Positions 1,297 to 19,258 of a stretch of DNA of 22,763 bases are shown here, in pieces (positions within the stretch are counted from its first letter, which is position 1; every line of letters starts with the position of its first letter). The stretch is from an uncultured bacterium (lineage in GTDB: Bacteria > Latescibacterota > CAZTBA01). The translations under genes were made by a program, and so were the position numbers. The stretch covers positions 1 to 22,763 of the forward strand of contig CAZTBA010000040.1 in NCBI GenBank assembly GCA_964611725.1. Direction: 5' to 3'. The notes under the pieces are model-generated. The model was not told where the DNA came from and searched no databases. It saw only the letters and a list, made by a program, of their open reading frames with translations.

Positions 1297-1353
1297 GCAA
1301 GTTTCAGAAAGTATTTTTGGGTTTTTGCTGATAGCACCTGAAATTCTTCAATT

Positions 1354-1438
1354 GCTGTCGTTGTTTCAGATATTTACCTGTAGAGACGACCCGGTGGGTC
1401 GTCTCCAAAACAGGAAAAGACAAAACATTTTCCGAAAT
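1354..1438 (+). repeat. conserved ~85-nt intergenic element, copy 1 (hairpin with covariation; consensus GCTGTCG-N3-TTTCAG-N3-TTTAYCTGTAGAGACG-[11 nt]-CGTCTCCAAAACARGAAAAG)
   Basis: The perfect hairpin GAGACGACCC-GGT-GGGTCGTCTC (1383-1405) sits inside flanks that are near-identical to the minus-strand sequence at 19155-19239. It lies 58 nt after the AKR stop and ~320 nt upstream of the ORF starting at 1762. Confidence 0.7.
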
Positions 1439-1473
1439 ACGCTTAGAGATTAAACCTGAATATATAGAGGATC

Positions 1474-1685
1474 GCCGACACGCCTGACAACGGCTGCAGC
1501 GGAGTGGCAAACTCGGGGCTGGTTCGGTCGTGTCGACAATGGTGAGCGAAGTAGTTCTGCCGGTGGAGGCTCGGGATCTCTCCGCTGATAGTGGTCCTTT
1601 TCAGAGATCCGTGTAGGGTTATCCAAGAGATACCCCCTGTCTTGGTCGATCACATAGGAATCGCCCCTACAATCCAACCCTACAC
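1474..1685. other. GC-rich structured non-coding region with nested inverted repeats (candidate ncRNA / cis-regulatory leader)
   Basis: Four inverted repeats are present: CGACACG(1476-1482)/CGTGTCG(1529-1535); GGATCTCT(1574-1581)/AGAGATCC(1603-1610); GTGTAGGGTT(1611-1620)/AACCCTACAC(1676-1685), which encloses CCAAGA(1623-1628)/TCTTGG(1640-1645); and a CCCTACA direct repeat. No convincing ORF. Confidence 0.4.
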
Positions 1686-1761
1686 GAATTTGCGAAATGA
1701 ATTACTAGCTGAACCATACATTTAGTGATAAAAACAAGAGTTACAGAAAGGTCGAGATACG

Positions 1762-2469
1762 ATGCCTGGCGTGATGTCCTGGGGTGAAATGGACTGGCTT
1801 TTCCCGGACTTCCGGGACACTGGTCTCATATATCACGGTACACGGGCGGAGCACCTGCCTGCGATCTTCCGAGAGGGCTTGCAGCCGGGTGTTGCTAAAG
1901 ACGGTCACGGCACTATCTACGATGCCCTTTACCGTCATCGTCCGCCGTCAGTTCCTGACTGGGTGGATCCAAGGCGGTGCATCTTCGGGTACATGAACAG
2001 GAAACGGTTTCCGGCCAACAAGTGTGGGGCCATCATTGGTATCCAATGCATCGACAGTGTCCGACAGCGCACATGGTTCGCAGTCAGCAAGTTTTGCGAT
2101 TGGATCTACTGTCCCCGGGAGGCGGGTTACTTCGATACTGAGGCCAGGGCCGCGTACTACAAGCAGGTGGTGGAGCCAGTCTGTGCCAGAGCATATTGGG
2201 ACATGAGCCTATCGTTCGAGACAAACCTGTCCATCCGCCACGACGAGTTGCTCAACACCCAGCAATGCCAGGAGCTGTTGATCTGTCTCGAACGCATTGA
2301 CGCCGACTATCTGTCTTTGCAGGCAGTGACGACTCCCGGGCAAGATCCCGTGCTTCGGACAATGTACCCAGACCTCTTCGATGAAGCAGAGACGAGACTG
2401 AAGCAAGGACTGCCAGTCTCTGAGCAGATCAAAGCGATCGAAGAGCACGCAATCAGTGCCAGGCGCTGA
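1762..2469 (+). CDS. hypothetical protein; N-terminal ~140 aa resemble the ADP-ribosyltransferase (PARP/Tpt1-like) fold, C-terminal ~95 aa unknown
   Basis: 235-aa ORF with ATG at 1762 and a weak SD (AGAAAGG, 10-nt spacer). Residues 22-57 (LIYHGTRAEHLPAIFREGLQPGVAKDGHGTIYDALY) match, from memory, the H-G-S/T beta-strand plus 'I..GL' helix plus 'GxG(I)Y.A' strand shared by the PARP1 catalytic domain (LLWHGSRTTNFAGILSQGL...GKGIYFAD) and KptA/Tpt1 (FLYHGTASRFLDEIKKQGL...HYVHLS). I recognise no other domain. It is preceded by a 465-bp structured leader. Confidence 0.55.
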   Translation: MPGVMSWGEMDWLFPDFRDTGLIYHGTRAEHLPAIFREGLQPGVAKDGHGTIYDALYRHRPPSVPDWVDPRRCIFGYMNRKRFPANKCGAIIGIQCIDSVRQRTWFAVSKFCDWIYCPREAGYFDTEARAAYYKQVVEPVCARAYWDMSLSFETNLSIRHDELLNTQQCQELLICLERIDADYLSLQAVTTPGQDPVLRTMYPDLFDEAETRLKQGLPVSEQIKAIEEHAISARR

Positions 2470-2557: not shown

Positions 2558-3757
2558 ATGTCATGGTTGCTCAAAGATCCACCCGATTTCAGCAAACATA
2601 ATGAGGAAGTAGCAGCACTATGGGATTCCTATCACAAAGGCCAGCCCAAGCGCGTACCGGTATCCATTCGCGGCAGTATACGCAACTTGATCCAGAACCC
2701 GGACTTGAACACAACCGGGTACACATTCAAAGATTTCTTTACGGATCCGGAGGCTCAGATTCAGTGCCAGTTGTCCTTCCAGAAGTGGTGCCGATACCAT
2801 GTGCTCTGCGACGAAGAGATGGGACCGCCGAGGGATGGCTGGCCGCTCTGCGTTGATTTCCAGAATTCCTATGACGCCGGGTGGTTCGGCTGTCCCCTGT
2901 ACTACGATGGCAACGCCGTGCCCGACACGATCGAGATTCTCAAGGAGAACAAGCACAAGCTCTACGACATGGAATGTCCGGATCTGCTGCATGGGGGGCT
3001 GATGAACCGAGCGGTGGAATTCTATGAGTACATGCATCAACGGTGCAGGAATCTGGAGTTTGAGAACCTGCCGGTACTCCCACCACGTACCATTCCCGCG
3101 GAAAGCTGCGACGGGCCGCTGGATGCGGCCTACAAGCTGCGTGGGGCAGCCGAAGTCTGCATGGACATGCTCACTGATCCGAACTACTACCATGATCTAA
3201 TGGAGTTCATCACCGAATCTCTCATCCGACGCATGAAGACGGTCCGCGAATGGCGCTGGGAACACTTTCTCGATTCCCCGGACAAGGGATGCTTCCGACA
3301 GCCCAACTTCGTCTTCGCCGATGATGCGGTAGTGTTACTCTCGATGGATCAATACCGAGAGTTTGTCTTCCCATACCACAGGCGCTTTGTGGAGGAGTTC
3401 AGCGACGGCGGGCGGACCAGCGTTCATATGTGCGGGGATGCTACACGATTTTTCCGGTTCCTTCGCGACCATCTCAACGTGTACAGTTTCGACACCGGTT
3501 TTCCCGTGGACCACGGGTGGCTGCGAAAGGAGCTCGGACCGGAGGTCCAGATTTCCGGGGGACCATCGGTCATGCTGGTCAAAGACGGACCGATTTCAGC
3601 GATTCGGAATCGGGTTCGGGACATCTGTGAGTCGGGTATTATGGAGGGGGGCAGGTTCATCCTGATCGCTGCGAACAACATGGCTCCATGCACGCCCGTG
3701 GAGCATATTGTTGCAATGTATGATGCCGCAAAGCAATTCGGCCGCTACGATTCCTAG
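2558..3757 (+). CDS. uroporphyrinogen decarboxylase (URO-D)/MtaA-CmuA-like family protein, paralog 1
   Basis: 399-aa ORF. SD GAGGAG (2544-2549) lies 8 nt before the ATG. It has URO-D-family length and layout, and a C-terminal 'SVHMCGD' matching the family's (I/V)H(I/M)CG motif followed by a TIM-barrel tail. It is paralogous in motif order to the next gene. Confidence 0.7.
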   Translation: MSWLLKDPPDFSKHNEEVAALWDSYHKGQPKRVPVSIRGSIRNLIQNPDLNTTGYTFKDFFTDPEAQIQCQLSFQKWCRYHVLCDEEMGPPRDGWPLCVDFQNSYDAGWFGCPLYYDGNAVPDTIEILKENKHKLYDMECPDLLHGGLMNRAVEFYEYMHQRCRNLEFENLPVLPPRTIPAESCDGPLDAAYKLRGAAEVCMDMLTDPNYYHDLMEFITESLIRRMKTVREWRWEHFLDSPDKGCFRQPNFVFADDAVVLLSMDQYREFVFPYHRRFVEEFSDGGRTSVHMCGDATRFFRFLRDHLNVYSFDTGFPVDHGWLRKELGPEVQISGGPSVMLVKDGPISAIRNRVRDICESGIMEGGRFILIAANNMAPCTPVEHIVAMYDAAKQFGRYDS

Positions 3758-3870: not shown

Positions 3871-4989
3871 ATGCTGACTCCCCGAGAAAACATACTGGAG
3901 GTCTTCCGGCAAGGGACTCCTGAGTGGATTCCACTGGTGACCCATGTGGACCCATACAACCAGCCAAACCGTACAGGTATGGATCCGGCATTGACTGAAG
4001 CCCTGGGAACCGTGCACTGGCATGACGAGAGTACCATCCGCCTCTCACGTTTTCTGGGCCTGGACATCATGGACTACGTCGGCGGACCGGTGCGTATTCG
4101 CAATGAGAACGTCACGGTCGAGGTCACCCAGGAAGGAGACGATACCACCCAAATCTGGCACACTCCGCAGGGCACACTGACCCAGGTGCAAAGACGTTGC
4201 CGGGATGACGGCACGTCCTACGTTGTCGAACACCTCATCAAGAACGCCTCCGACCTGCCGGCGCTGGCAGCCATATTCGAGGACCAAACCCTGATCCTCG
4301 ATACGGACGCAGTGGCCGCAATGCGGAAGCGCCAGGAACTTATCGGCAACGACGGTATACTGCAGTGCTCCATGCCGGGAACGCCGATGGGCATGATGTA
4401 CCGTGTCTACAGCGGAGTAGAGACCCTGGTGTATCTCTACCACGATGCCCCACAGGCACTGGGAGATCTGTTCACGGTCATGGAGACGAACTACCAAAAA
4501 CGGTTGAAAATCAGCCTGGAGGCCCCAGCGGATGTCCACGTGGGCATGGACGACACCTCCACAACGATTATTTCACCGGCCATGTTTGAAGCATGCAACC
4601 TCGAGCTGACGAACCAGAGGGCGGACATATGCCACGAAGTCGGTAAACTCTACTTTCATCACTCTTGCGGCCTCATCCGTGACCTGCTCCCGCTTTATCG
4701 ACGAACCAGAATGGATGCCGTACATGCTTTCACAGAACCTCCCATTGGCAACGTGACGATCGTAGACGGCCGCAAGCTACTGGGCGACAGGATCGCCATA
4801 CGCGGCAATGTGGCTGCGATGGCCGAGGAATCCTGGGAGCCGGAAGCTATGCGGAAGAGCGTCCGCGAGCTCTTCAGGGGCATCACCCCAAGGGATCACG
4901 TTGCGCTCAGTATAACTGCCTACCCCCACAGGACGATTGACCAGATGAAGTTGGTCGTTGAAGCATGTCGAATGTATCGAGACATCTGA
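3871..4989 (+). CDS. uroporphyrinogen decarboxylase (URO-D)/MtaA-CmuA-like family protein, paralog 2
   Basis: 372-aa ORF. The N-terminus MLTPRENILEVFRQGTPEWIPL is the classic URO-D/MtaA opening (MTPRERLLAAL..G...DRVP-like), and 'FHHSCG' corresponds to the (I/V)HxCG motif. Weak SD GGAGAG lies 3 nt before the ATG. Confidence 0.75.
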   Translation: MLTPRENILEVFRQGTPEWIPLVTHVDPYNQPNRTGMDPALTEALGTVHWHDESTIRLSRFLGLDIMDYVGGPVRIRNENVTVEVTQEGDDTTQIWHTPQGTLTQVQRRCRDDGTSYVVEHLIKNASDLPALAAIFEDQTLILDTDAVAAMRKRQELIGNDGILQCSMPGTPMGMMYRVYSGVETLVYLYHDAPQALGDLFTVMETNYQKRLKISLEAPADVHVGMDDTSTTIISPAMFEACNLELTNQRADICHEVGKLYFHHSCGLIRDLLPLYRRTRMDAVHAFTEPPIGNVTIVDGRKLLGDRIAIRGNVAAMAEESWEPEAMRKSVRELFRGITPRDHVALSITAYPHRTIDQMKLVVEACRMYRDI

Positions 4990-5202
4990 GAGAATCAGCA
5001 CCGAACGGGCGCTTGCACGCGACCGCCCTGACTCTGTTGTTCTCACTGTAGTCCTGTCCGTTATTGACGCTCTTCTTCTTTTCAGAAGTTCCTTTGTTAG
5101 TTTTGGCAGCAGGCGAATCACAGGCCGTTCGGACCACAGAGAATGAAATCAATCTGCCAAGTTCTCCAACTCACTCGAGATTGATTCCGAAAGGGGATCA
5201 CA

Positions 5203-7200
5203 ATGAATGAAACACACCTTATCCCTGTCACAAAGCCCGAAGATATGCTGAAGAGCCGAGAATGGGCGGGACGCTTCCTCTCCGGTCCCGCCGACCTTCC
5301 CGTCTCTTTCATGTTCGATGGAAGGACCATAGGCGGCATCCCGAAAGACTGGCAACCGGTTTCAACCAGACGCCGCATCGACGCCAATATCTTCGAGACG
5401 GTTTTTGAAGGCAGGGACGCCGGGACCGGCTTGAATGTGCGGGTCGAGTGCACGGAGTATCAGGACTACCCGGTTGTGGAATGGGTGGCATGGCTCACCA
5501 ACAAGGGCAATGAAGCCACACCGGTGATCCGTGACATCCTCGCAATGGACGGAACGTTCAATGGTTCTTCGCCCATTCTGTATCACTGCAATGGCGACTT
5601 CTACAGTGAGGAAGGATACACACCTCAAGAGACTCCCCTACGCGCGGGAGCCACACTCGACTTTGCCCCCAACGGGGGCCGTCCCTGTGACGGCGCATTC
5701 CCCTACTACCGAATCATGTTCGAGGACTGCGGTCTATCCATGGCCATCGGCTGGCCCGGGCAGTGGGCGGCAACTTTCAAAGGGCTTGCGGACGGCGTAC
5801 ACGTTCAGGTGGGTCAGGAAAAGACGAATCTTCGGCTCATGCCGGGTGAAAGCATCCGCACGCCGCGAATGACCGTTCTGTCCTGGACAGGGGACGTTTC
5901 AAGAGCGGTAAACCTGTGGCGGCGGTGGTATATTGCCCACATCCTTCCAAGGCCCAACGGTCAACCGATGAAACCGCTGCTGGCCTGCGAGGGCCCTGGT
6001 GACGGCGTGGAATTCACAGCAGCCACCGAAGAGAATCAACTCCTGCATATCGAGATGGCCAAACAGCGTGGAATTCCATTTGACGTCTGGTGGATCGATG
6101 CCGGCTGGTATCCCTGCTACGACGAAAATCATGAAAGAACATGGCCGGTAACAGGCACATGGGAGCCCGACCCCGAAAGGTTTCCCAACGGTCTGAAACC
6201 GGTATCCGACTGCGCAGCCCGAAACGGCGCGGACCTGTTGATCTGGTTTGAGCCGGAAAGAGTACGCCTCGGCACAAAACTCGATGTGGAACACCCGGAA
6301 TGGCTTCTGAGGATGGGTGAGAGCGATAACAGTCTGTTGAATCTGGGCAACCCGGAATGCCGTCAACGGCTTACCGATCACGTGTGCAGGCTGATCAAGG
6401 ACAACGGCATAAAGATCTACAGACAGGATCACAACTTCGAGCCGCTGGAATATTGGCGCAGGAACGAGGACCCGGACCGTCAGGGCATGAATGAGAACCT
6501 GCATGTTCAGGGCTACCTTCAGTACTGGGACGACCTGCTGGCACGAAATCCCGGCCTGTGGCTCGATTCATGCGCGAGCGGAGGACGTCGCAATGACCTC
6601 GAAACCATGCGCCGTTCCGTGCCGCTGCACTATACCGACTACGGGTACGGGGATCATCCGGTGAAGCTGGCATTCCACCACACACTGTATGCGTGGCTAC
6701 CTTATTTCAAGGAATCCGCGCTCTCCTGGGATATCGGCGGAAGGGCGAGGTTCGCCCACCAGGTAGACAGCTTCTCCTACCACTGCGGCATGGCTCCCCT
6801 GTTTTCTACAGCTCTCGACATCCGCCGTGACGACTACGACTATGCCCTTGCCAAGAGAATGATCGACATCTGGCGCCAGGCATCCGATCTGATGCTGTAC
6901 GGCGACTACTATCCCCTTACGCCGTTCCACCGCAGCGCTGAGAAATGGGTCATCTGGCAGTTTGACTGCCCGGAAAAGGGCTGTGGGCTCGTCCAGGGAA
7001 TCCGTCTTCCGGAATCGCCGGAAGAGACCATCACAGTCCATCCGAAGGGTATTCGCTCGGATTCAACGTACTTCTTCGAGAACGCTGAAACTGGTGAGAC
7101 AAGGGACATTTCGGGAGCGGATCTGCTCCACGGTGATTTCACGTTCGCGCTTCCGAAGCGCAGTGGGGCCATCTGGTTCTATCGAAAGAACCCCGAATAG
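5203..7200 (+). CDS. glycoside hydrolase, clan GH-D (GH36/melibiase-like alpha-galactosidase family)
   Basis: 665-aa ORF. SD AAGGGGA lies 5 nt before the ATG. Three motifs match GH36 from memory: 'FDVWWIDAGWY' (like LDDGWF), 'LLIWFEPERV' (like GLWFEPEMV) and 'IKIYRQDHN ... LDSCASGGRRND' (like KWDMNR ... CSSGGGRFD). There is no N-terminal signal peptide. Confidence 0.65.
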   Translation: MNETHLIPVTKPEDMLKSREWAGRFLSGPADLPVSFMFDGRTIGGIPKDWQPVSTRRRIDANIFETVFEGRDAGTGLNVRVECTEYQDYPVVEWVAWLTNKGNEATPVIRDILAMDGTFNGSSPILYHCNGDFYSEEGYTPQETPLRAGATLDFAPNGGRPCDGAFPYYRIMFEDCGLSMAIGWPGQWAATFKGLADGVHVQVGQEKTNLRLMPGESIRTPRMTVLSWTGDVSRAVNLWRRWYIAHILPRPNGQPMKPLLACEGPGDGVEFTAATEENQLLHIEMAKQRGIPFDVWWIDAGWYPCYDENHERTWPVTGTWEPDPERFPNGLKPVSDCAARNGADLLIWFEPERVRLGTKLDVEHPEWLLRMGESDNSLLNLGNPECRQRLTDHVCRLIKDNGIKIYRQDHNFEPLEYWRRNEDPDRQGMNENLHVQGYLQYWDDLLARNPGLWLDSCASGGRRNDLETMRRSVPLHYTDYGYGDHPVKLAFHHTLYAWLPYFKESALSWDIGGRARFAHQVDSFSYHCGMAPLFSTALDIRRDDYDYALAKRMIDIWRQASDLMLYGDYYPLTPFHRSAEKWVIWQFDCPEKGCGLVQGIRLPESPEETITVHPKGIRSDSTYFFENAETGETRDISGADLLHGDFTFALPKRSGAIWFYRKNPE

Positions 7201-7264
7201 AGGACTGAAACCGACACCGAGCGGTACCGCTGACTTCCATTCCGTTACAGAGAGGAGGTGCGTC

Positions 7265-8734
7265 GTGAAGTACATTACCGAACCGGAGAAACGCGTGCCT
7301 GTAGCGCTCGATGCGGACGTTGTCGTAGCCGGCGCCGGCGTGAGCGGCGTGATGGCGGCCATCGCGTCGGCAAGGCACGGTGCGAAGACGGCAATCGTAG
7401 ATCGATTCGGCTCCGTCGGCGGGAATACCGGCCCCGGCTTCATCGCGGGAGGCGGCATGCTGCCCGGCAGCCCACACCCGGACGCCGGGTACTCCCGCAC
7501 GGTGTTTCCCGGGCTGTACGGCATAGCACGGGAGCTGATCGAGCGATACGCCGTGGCGGGCGGGAACGGATTGCAGCCGTACACGAAGCCGCCGTCAAAC
7601 TACGCATACAACGCACACCTCGCATCGTACGTCGCGCAGACGATGCTCGAAGAGAGCGGCGTTCGCGTCATGCTCTCAACTCGTATCGCCGATCCGATCA
7701 TGGATGGAACGAACGTGTGCGGGCTTTTCGTGGAGGACAAGTCGGGCCGACGCGCCGTGACGGCACGGGTGGTTATCGACGCAACCGGCGAGGCGGACGT
7801 GGCGCGACGCGCGGGCGCGCCGGTGCTCTATCCGAAGGACAGCTACCACGAGATCGACGGTCATGCGCCGACGGGCATGGGCATTTACTTCCTCATCGGT
7901 GGCGTGGATTCGGACCGGTACGAGTTGGCGATGGGCGGCGTCGAGGTCTCCGACGAGGATGTCGAATGGGGCATCGCGACGCTGGGCGAGAAACACGCCG
8001 GGGCGTACCGCGCGTTTCTGCCGTTCATGCGGAAGGCGAGCGACCGCGGCGACCTGAATCTGCGCTACACGCACGTCGATCTCGACGGTTCCCGCGTCGC
8101 GCTGTTAGCACAGATGCCATGCAGGAGCGGTACACCGAATTCCTGCCACGGGCGGCTCCAGCCGGAACGGGTCGAGGCGATCGATGCGTCGAACGCCGAC
8201 CACATCTCCGCGCTGGAGATCGGCGTGAGGATGCACCTTATCGAGATGGCGCGGTTCTGGAAGCATTACGTGCCGGGGTTCGAGAATTCGTGCGTGGTCA
8301 ACATCGCGCCGTTCCTCGGGTCGCGCGGCGGGCCGTGCATCGAAGGAGAGTACACGCTGACCATGGACGACTGCAAGGCAGCGCGCCGCTTCGACGACGT
8401 CACGTATCTCTACGGGCAATGGATCGCGCTAAAGCATACGTGCGATCAGGGAAAGTGCGAATGGGCGGATGTTCCCTACCGGGTGATGGTGCCGAAGAGG
8501 ATCGACGGACTGCTCGCGACGGGTCGCTGTGCGTCGTGCATCCCCGACACGCTCCTGAGGAATCGCATGGCGATCAAGGTCCTCGGCGAGGCGACCGGGA
8601 CGGCGGCGGCGCTCGCGGCGAAGAACGGCGTTCGGCCGCGTGATCTCGATAGACGGGAGCTTCAGCGGACGCTTCTCGGCGCGGGGTTTTACCTTGGAGA
8701 CATCGAGCGGCTGAAGCAATTGGGTTTGATCTGA
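7265..8734 (+). CDS. FAD-dependent oxidoreductase (PF12831-like, FAD_oxidored family)
   Basis: The long ORF 6962..8734 overlaps the GH36 3' end at its 5' side. The functional start is most likely GTG 7265, 6 nt after a perfect AGGAGG (7253-7258). A Rossmann GxGxxG (VVVAGAGVSGVMAAIA) lies 15 aa after that start, and the C-terminal ...CASCIPDTLLRNRMAIKVLGEATGTAAALAA segment is typical of this family. Coding is very GC-rich: the alternate frame 7258..8643 is an Arg-rich (RRRRERR...) pseudo-ORF. Confidence 0.8.
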   Translation: MKYITEPEKRVPVALDADVVVAGAGVSGVMAAIASARHGAKTAIVDRFGSVGGNTGPGFIAGGGMLPGSPHPDAGYSRTVFPGLYGIARELIERYAVAGGNGLQPYTKPPSNYAYNAHLASYVAQTMLEESGVRVMLSTRIADPIMDGTNVCGLFVEDKSGRRAVTARVVIDATGEADVARRAGAPVLYPKDSYHEIDGHAPTGMGIYFLIGGVDSDRYELAMGGVEVSDEDVEWGIATLGEKHAGAYRAFLPFMRKASDRGDLNLRYTHVDLDGSRVALLAQMPCRSGTPNSCHGRLQPERVEAIDASNADHISALEIGVRMHLIEMARFWKHYVPGFENSCVVNIAPFLGSRGGPCIEGEYTLTMDDCKAARRFDDVTYLYGQWIALKHTCDQGKCEWADVPYRVMVPKRIDGLLATGRCASCIPDTLLRNRMAIKVLGEATGTAAALAAKNGVRPRDLDRRELQRTLLGAGFYLGDIERLKQLGLI

Positions 8735-19111: not shown

Positions 19112-19154
19112 AAAAGAAGCGAAAGCACTCACCTCCTGATAAAGTCTAGGCAAG

Positions 19155-19239
19155 TTTTAGAAAACATCTTTCCCTTTTCTTGTTTTGGAGACGCCTCATC
19201 GAGGCGTCTCTACAGATAAACACCTGAAAAGTCGACAGC
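19155..19239 (-). repeat. conserved ~85-nt intergenic element, copy 2 (inverted orientation relative to copy 1)
   Basis: The minus strand reads GCTGTCGACTTTTCAGGTGTTTATCTGTAGAGACGCCTCGATGAGGCGTCTCCAAAACAAGAAAAGGG. Flanks are identical to copy 1; the hairpin interior (CCTC/GAGG versus ACCC/GGGT) differs but stays fully paired. It begins 20 nt after the encapsulin stop and runs up to the tpx start region. Confidence 0.7.
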
Positions 19240-19258
19240 GACTATAGAGTCTACCATC

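Follow-up and report, generated by a model that had tools for sequence, protein, structure and literature searches.

Positions 1762 to 2469 of the forward strand of contig CAZTBA010000040.1 (GenBank assembly GCA_964611725.1; analyzed from position 1 to 22,763 and referred to as the window), which derives from an uncultured bacterium of the Latescibacterota, encode a stand-alone ADP-ribosyltransferase (ART)-fold protein of 235 amino acids that is related to DarT. This protein is probably a single-domain cytoplasmic ADP-ribosyltransferase with a very remote homology to the DarT enzymes, which ADP-ribosylate single-stranded DNA (ssDNA). A preliminary description of the sequence had proposed a novel stand-alone ART-fold protein, and evidence in favor of this proposal comes from a profile-profile alignment, from sequence profiles, and from two models of the structure. 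At the level of profiles and structure models, the family was shown to be homologous to DarT over the whole catalytic domain, remotely but demonstrably. Within the DarT-like clade, we assign it to a new and divergent orphan branch; it is not a DarTG system and lies outside the current Pfam DarT model.

Family and relationship to DarT

The open reading frame (ORF) is complete, with an ATG start and 235 codons followed by a stop codon; its limits and those of the motif at 1825 to 1932 (codons 22 to 57, read as LIYHGTRAEHLPAIFREGLQPGVAKDGHGTIYDALY) were found exactly as first described. Among 5.8 billion proteins searched, 42 homologues with 43 to 79% identity were retrieved, nearly all of which have 235 to 265 amino acids and no Pfam domain. 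They share the N-terminal MPGVMSW segment (MPGVMSWEEMNWLFPDF), which is conserved and family specific, and judging from this common start segment of the 42 homologues, the gene is real. When 1.84 billion cluster representatives were searched exhaustively with the family profile, only 34 matched at an E value of ≤0.001, mostly fragments of the same family. A few of these matches were shorter, AT-rich relatives, and a profile extended with them retrieved a second branch of approximately 195 to 205 amino acids in Clostridia, in genera that include Thermohalobacter, Wukongibacter, Paramaledivibacter, Geosporobacter, and Tepidibacter; one member, WP_073149218.1, is from the cultured Paramaledivibacter caminithermalis. 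Proteins of the window's branch have approximately 235 to 250 amino acids, and this branch was found in GTDB species representatives that are metagenome-assembled genomes labelled Candidatus Poribacteria or Latescibacterota (15 loci, with two copies in one genome). Both branches are homologous according to hhalign (99.5%; E value, 3e-23). No family member was found in the IMG/VR viral contigs or in PHROGs, and we found no paper describing the family in the literature. A 1,096-residue ankyrin-repeat protein (P0063) that matched the family profile was dismissed as repeat driven.

To compare the family with genuine DarT, we compiled a reference of 18 full-length ORFs from viral and metagenome contigs. 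The contig scans were seeded by true DarT N-terminal motifs, which had been pulled from the PDB with a DarT-like synthetic peptide, and all 18 ORFs passed PF14487 (best E value, 2.5e-55). Alignment of the window's branch with this reference by hhalign gave a probability of 86.4% (P = 4.6e-6; 167 columns), and the corresponding value for the combined family was 96.2% (P = 2.6e-9; 144 columns); the Clostridial branch alone reached 50%. In the controls, for which the DarT alignment was reversed or its columns were shuffled (20 versions), the probabilities were ≤3% and the scores ≤22.8, compared to 45 to 66 for the real alignments. The identity between DarT and the window protein is 10 to 14%. The preliminary description had seen its closest likeness in the poly(ADP-ribose) polymerases (PARP) and had also mentioned DarT-like enzymes; the latter was a good guess that the profile-profile alignment bears out, and the nearest relative is DarT rather than PARP.

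Structure models are in line with this relationship. The AlphaFold model of the window protein has a predicted local distance difference test (pLDDT) score of 89, and the structure comparison revealed a recognizable split β-sheet ART core. The list obtained for this model contains the DarT entries Thermosipho DarTG (score, 7.9), Thermus DarT (7.6), and E. coli DarT1 (7.5), along with BC2332 (7.6), SopF (7.1), CC0527 (6.5), Tpt1 (6.4), and OspC3 (6.3). The same top list was obtained with a second model, made independently for the Clostridial branch (pLDDT, 88). BC2332 (PDB 2aua; SCOP d.166.1.6, "BC2332-like") is an uncharacterized ART-fold protein of Bacillus cereus that had no match at an E value of ≤10 in the PDB hidden Markov model (HMM) scan; being uncharacterized, it provides no mechanistic guidance. 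Taken together, profiles and models indicate that the protein belongs to the ART superfamily and that the fold is conserved.

Searches with individual sequences gave weaker signals. The window protein is below the DarT thresholds of Pfam (gathering threshold, 22.5 bits) and PADLOC, and nothing significant was obtained with NCBIfam, where a stray match to FliZ, which is not an ART (E value, 0.0015), amounted to 18 bits compared to a cutoff of 159 bits. The single-sequence scan of NCBIfam and PDB gave subthreshold matches to Tpt1 over residues 18 to 54 (E values, 0.07 to 0.1), besides a few stray non-ART matches. When the family profile was compared with the PDB, E values were 0.0015 to 0.006 for Tpt1 and 0.05 to 0.12 for DarT. 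In a member-by-member scan, 16 of 36 sequences had weak PARP matches and 3 had weak DarT matches (best E value, 0.009), and the PADLOC DarT model was matched by 7 of the 36 (best E value, 7e-4). Two proteins of the Clostridial branch are closer to the existing annotation: P0078 scored 27.3 bits with the Pfam DarT model and thus exceeded its gathering score, through its C-terminal half, and P0098 is named "DarT domain-containing protein" in UniRef.

In two other loci, DarT-like domains carry extensions. The ORF at 1171 to 2499 of L055 contains a genuine DarT2-like domain and a long C-terminal extension with an HD-type "HDIGK" motif but no macrodomain, and runs off the end of the locus; it may represent a different DarT-hydrolase fusion. 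In L042, a DarT1-like domain (859 to 1938) follows an N-terminal extension of approximately 120 amino acids with hydrophobic segments, in an open frame.

Predicted active site

The predicted NAD (nicotinamide adenine dinucleotide)-binding motif comprises the β-1 strand and the α-1 helix, L22 to L40 (LIYHGTRAEHLPAIFREGL; 1825 to 1881, forward strand), as judged by HMM alignments with Tpt1 and DarT, and corresponds to the DarT segment YH(I/F)TH.DNL..IL..G. Residues Y24, H25, and G39 are invariant in all 76 family sequences, which makes the motif more than a chance resemblance, in agreement with the YHGT strand and the helix ending in GL that had been noted previously. The remainder of the proposed motif did not hold. 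The GHGTIYDA segment had been taken for the tyrosine-containing strand of PARP; however, residues 49 to 58 (HGTIYDALYR, H49 to R58; 1906 to 1935, forward strand) form a helix in the model, and position 53 is Tyr in 36, His in 35, and Asn in 5 of the 76 sequences, with Tyr confined to the Poribacterial branch and His or Asn in the Clostridial one. Its supposed Gly-x-Gly pattern is likewise not conserved, the consensus being D-x-H-E-T-I-Y-x-A. In the model, this segment is probably part of the loop region that covers NAD, and the β-2 strand corresponds to C73-I-F-G-Y-M-N79 (1978 to 1998, forward strand; model strand, 74 to 77), which aligns with CLSVSYPN (C61 to N68) of DarT1. Within this strand, F75 is Phe or Tyr in 76 of 76 sequences and is located at or beside the position of DarT2 Y71 and DarT1 S63. 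The basic residue of R60-P61 (1939 to 1944, forward strand) is Arg or Lys in all 76 sequences and was aligned by hhalign with R52 of DarT1 and R51 of DarT2.

The predicted catalytic residue is E171 (2272 to 2274), located at the start of β-5 (Q167 to D180, QQCQELLICLERID; 2260 to 2301, forward strand; model strand, 170 to 174). It is invariant in the alignment of the window's branch, as is E159 in the Clostridial alignment, and hhalign aligned both Glu residues with each other. Since a MAFFT alignment of the 76 sequences put E171 one residue out of register in the Clostridial sequences, the per-branch alignments and hhalign were used for this position. In the alignment with DarT1, H25 was placed on H17, R60 on R52, and E171 on E152 (E160 in DarT2). 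The β-5 segment of the window protein resembles QAEILVFEKIPPSYI of DarT1, in the comparison with DarT the β-5 motif QxELLICxxI.P matches QAEILVFEKIPP, and the Pfam DarT model covers the β-5/Glu region in the sister protein P0078. The two candidates proposed earlier for the catalytic acid are replaced by E171: E127 is variable already among close relatives, and E138, situated in a long helix, is replaced by Gly in the Clostridial proteins.

The three positions of the ART triad, namely, His in β-1, an aromatic residue in β-2, and Glu at β-5, are thus occupied, and the equivalents of the catalytic Arg and Glu of DarT are present as R60 and E171. The spacings between His and Arg, Arg and β-2, and β-2 and Glu are 35, 15, and 96 residues in the window protein, compared to 38, 20, and 89 in DarT2. 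For Thermus DarT2 and E. coli DarT1, it has been reported that H13 contacts the adenine-ribose, that R51/R52 contacts the β-phosphate, polarizes NAD, and abstracts a proton, that Y71 of DarT2 (Ser63 in DarT1) stacks on the nicotinamide, and that E160/E152 is the catalytic Glu (PMC9967889, PMC11543638). From the alignments and the model, we infer that H25, R60, F75, and E171 are arranged around an NAD pocket.

The overall architecture also resembles that of DarT (PF14487, formerly DUF4433), a single-domain ART of approximately 200 amino acids that starts directly with the β-1 strand "YH.T" and in which His, Arg, β-2, and Glu are equivalent and similarly spaced. There are, however, clear differences. 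The TH.DN sequence after the His and D54 of DarT1 are not conserved, the "NAA" and base-reading residues of DarT appear not to be, and the family has its own N-terminal segment and a C-terminal extension and no adjacent DarG or NADAR gene. The extension (approximately residues 196 to 235; 2347 to 2466, forward strand) consists of two helices in the model, at 203 to 214 and 220 to 234, and is present only in the Poribacteria/Latescibacterota branch, whereas the Clostridial branch lacks it. An invariant His cluster (H76, H79, and H81; "HxFHSH") of the Clostridial branch is, in turn, lacking in the window's branch. The isoelectric point did not discriminate the family from DarT, since E. coli DarT1 is acidic too. 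With the PARP catalytic domain (PF00644; H-Y-E), the protein shares the superfamily fold and the logic of His, aromatic residue, and Glu; the triad with Tyr in a G-x-[IY]-Y-F-A β-2 strand was not found.

Proposed function and alternative readings

In the mechanism that we propose, H25 in β-1 would contact the NAD ribose and the nicotinamide amide, R60 would contact the β-phosphate and polarize NAD, F75 in β-2 would stack on the nicotinamide, and E171 at the start of β-5 would act as the catalytic Glu. The protein would bind NAD+, cleave off nicotinamide, and pass ADP-ribose to an acceptor. The leading guess for this acceptor, drawn from the example of DarT, is a nucleic acid base. DarT2 and DarT1 are thymidine- and guanosine-specific ssDNA ADP-ribosyltransferases, respectively, of the DarTG and DarT-NADAR toxin-antitoxin and anti-phage systems, and the base-reading residue in their ADP-ribosylating turn-turn (ARTT) loop is His in DarT2 and Asn in DarT1. 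This substrate recognition loop appears not to be conserved between the window protein and DarT1 or DarT2, and the target can therefore not be read from the sequence. The gene is not accompanied by a macrodomain, a NADAR gene, or any other partner that is conserved, and the protein is therefore presumably not lethally toxic to its host or is controlled otherwise.

A number of observations weigh against a DarT-like enzyme acting on nucleic acids. (i) The comparison of the window protein with Pfam gave nothing at an E value of ≤10, and the Foldseek search of its model against the PDB returned noise only, without a match, so that the relationship must be remote. (ii) D54, essential in DarT1, corresponds to P62 in the window protein and is not conserved. 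The invariant "NAA" motif of DarT was placed on E120-A121-G122 in one pairwise alignment and on positions 110 to 112 in another, so that the placement of the ARTT loop is inconsistent, and the arrangement of the four residues around the pocket was derived from alignments and secondary structure. (iii) A cell could hardly tolerate a DarT-like DNA toxin in the absence of an antitoxin, and the Clostridial genes have a conserved chromosomal position; both argue against a classic toxin and weaken the nucleic acid guess.

Given the missing antitoxin, the apparently nonconserved ARTT loop, and the stable Clostridial position, a protein or small-molecule target is quite possible. An ART of this type could be an arginine ADP-ribosyltransferase or ADP-riboxanase like SopF or OspC3 or an enzyme that modifies a xenobiotic or antibiotic like Arr. 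For such an enzyme, it would be natural that no locus carries an antitoxin, the Clostridial branch is stably chromosomal, and several Poribacterial loci have GNAT, APH, S-adenosylmethionine (SAM) methyltransferase, and glyoxalase neighbors. However, these enzyme families are abundant in such genomes and none is consistently adjacent, and the sequence signal is entirely on DarT, Tpt1, and PARP, with none on SopF, OspC, or Arr; we consider this reading rather unlikely. A further, rather doubtful possibility is that the protein is the founding member of an ART family that diverged from DarT and carries out a nonlethal, physiological ADP-ribosylation without a dedicated eraser, on an acceptor that is new to DarT-type enzymes (for example, another nucleic acid base, an RNA species, a metabolite, or a xenobiotic), inherited vertically in a group of Clostridia and moving as a single gene among Poribacteria and Latescibacterota.

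It is very improbable that the fold is retained without transfer of ADP-ribose, either in an NAD+ glycohydrolase or in a noncatalytic pseudo-ART that binds NAD or ADP-ribose. The absence of a partner and of a recognizable substrate loop would fit either case, but strict conservation of the His, Arg/Lys, Phe/Tyr, and Glu positions in both branches, despite their deep divergence, argues for retained catalysis, and DarT itself shows no NADase activity (PMC9967889). Least of all do we expect a Tpt1/KptA-type RNA 2'-phosphotransferase or a related enzyme modifying RNA ends, although Tpt1 provides the top single-sequence and profile HMM matches in the PDB and NCBIfam. These matches are due to the NAD-binding C-lobe of Tpt1/KptA (PF01885), which has a nearly identical YHGT....L..I...GL.P motif and the best E values with the PDB HMMs, and a faint match to "RNA 2'-phosphotransferase" was also seen in PHROGs. 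They cover, however, only about 25 to 55 residues of this lobe, and the NCBIfam scores are 11 to 13 bits compared to cutoffs of >230 bits. In addition, the ART motif starts at residue 22, as already pointed out in the preliminary description, which leaves no room for an N-terminal RNA lobe. The latter holds most of the Arg-His-Arg-Arg catalytic tetrad of Tpt1, and the corresponding two-lobe architecture was not found in the window protein.

DarT is the paradigm for the ADP-ribosylation of DNA bases and has roles in phage defense, in the growth control of Mycobacterium tuberculosis, and, recently, in genome editing. To our knowledge, all characterized DarTs are toxins with a paired hydrolase that reverses the modification. 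A DarT relative that keeps the His, Arg, aromatic, and Glu residues but in which the partner and, apparently, the base-reading loop were lost or never existed would show other uses of this scaffold, possibly a specificity for a new acceptor or a nucleic acid mark that is regulated and tolerated. The predicted catalytic residues make this hypothesis directly testable. There are, however, quite a few uncharacterized ART families, and nothing points to an unusual mechanism so far. Since this small family is missed by Pfam and NCBIfam, a dedicated model would improve the annotation of sponge symbiont and sediment lineages.

Genomic neighborhood and upstream region

In accordance with the preliminary description, no macrodomain or obvious partner is adjacent to the gene in the window, and neither a macrodomain or NADAR nor a common neighbor was found in approximately 20 homologous loci (7 with called genes and about 12 further GTDB loci). 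The adjacent or fused DarG macrodomain or NADAR antitoxin that defines the DarTG and DarT-NADAR systems is thus absent. Clustering of the ORFs of at least 80 amino acids in 16 loci revealed generic SAM methyltransferases (7 loci) and antisense shadow ORFs as the sole recurrences. Transposases or integrases are found near the ART gene in L001, L002, and L004, a PIN/PhD pair is a neighbor in L025, and an SMI1_KNR4 protein is a neighbor in L026. At the DNA level, the L025 copy shows 83% identity, and its similarity to the window in blastn extends from the start codon to the stop codon only; the homology being bounded by the ORF and the contexts being unrelated, the gene is a single-gene unit.

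In the Clostridial branch, the gene occupies one conserved chromosomal position across several genera (L005 to L009; ART gene at approximately 5001 to 5600), in the order SBP_bac_5 (oligopeptide-binding) genes, a 460-residue polytopic membrane protein, the ART, a 519-residue protein, an AIRS/ThiL-like protein, and amidase_3. This placement looks like vertical inheritance and not like a mobile toxin. No homologues of the 460-residue, 519-residue, and AIRS-family neighbors were found near the Poribacterial copies.

Generic class I SAM methyltransferases are encoded a few genes away in about eight Poribacteria/Latescibacterota loci (L003, L013, L014, L016, L018, L019, L021, and L025), GNAT acetyltransferases are found near the ART gene in L002, L003, L004, and L025, an APH-family kinase adjoins it in L001, and a glyoxalase is present in L003. 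The GNAT, SAM methyltransferase, and APH neighbors could be coincidental, such genes being numerous in these genomes, or could hint at a neighborhood of small-molecule modification. In the two closest loci, small ORFs overlap or abut the ART gene, at 5708 to 5923 (71 amino acids) and 4600 to 4989 (129 amino acids) of L026 and at 2148 to 2288 (46 amino acids) of L025; neither NCBIfam nor Pfam gave a match for any of them, and the window contains nothing that corresponds to them.

In the window, the ART gene is flanked by an aldo-keto reductase gene (265 to 1296) on one side and by two URO-D-like genes on the other, followed by glycosidase and other metabolic genes. The two URO-D-family genes (2558 to 3757, 399 amino acids; 3871 to 4989, 372 amino acids) are located in tandem directly downstream on the same strand, and the first matches the URO-D model with its C-terminal part only; in other genomes, there is no linkage between these genes and the ART gene. 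A melibiase/GH36-like gene (5203 to 7200) follows the pair. The ORF at 7258 to 8643 (461 amino acids) has no Pfam match at an E value of ≤0.001, and its start is uncertain because of an overlapping 590-residue ORF with a TTG start (6962 to 8734).

The ART gene is preceded by an intergenic region of 465 bp (1297 to 1761, forward strand), for which an unusually long structured leader had been proposed. It folds somewhat better than shuffled sequences (z = -3.1), and a palindromic element that occurs twice in the window largely accounts for this. No conservation was seen in the homologous loci, with which blastn detected no similarity, the search of positions 1200 to 2700 with Rfam gave no match, a scan for promoters and terminators yielded nothing informative, and in the closest homologues (L025 and L026) the ART gene abuts the upstream ORF. 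A structured leader as a feature of the family was therefore rejected. The palindromic element, of approximately 100 to 150 nucleotides, is present in two intergenic copies, at 1294 to 1445 in the 5' third of the leader and at 19147 to 19248, both directly after stop codons. Terminal inverted repeats (TAGGCAAGTTT[C/T]AGAAA...) enclose the GC hairpin at its center (GTAGAGACGACCCGGTGGGTCGTCTCCAAAAC), and it could be an element like the repetitive extragenic palindromic sequences (REP) or miniature inverted-repeat transposable elements (MITE), or a bidirectional terminator.

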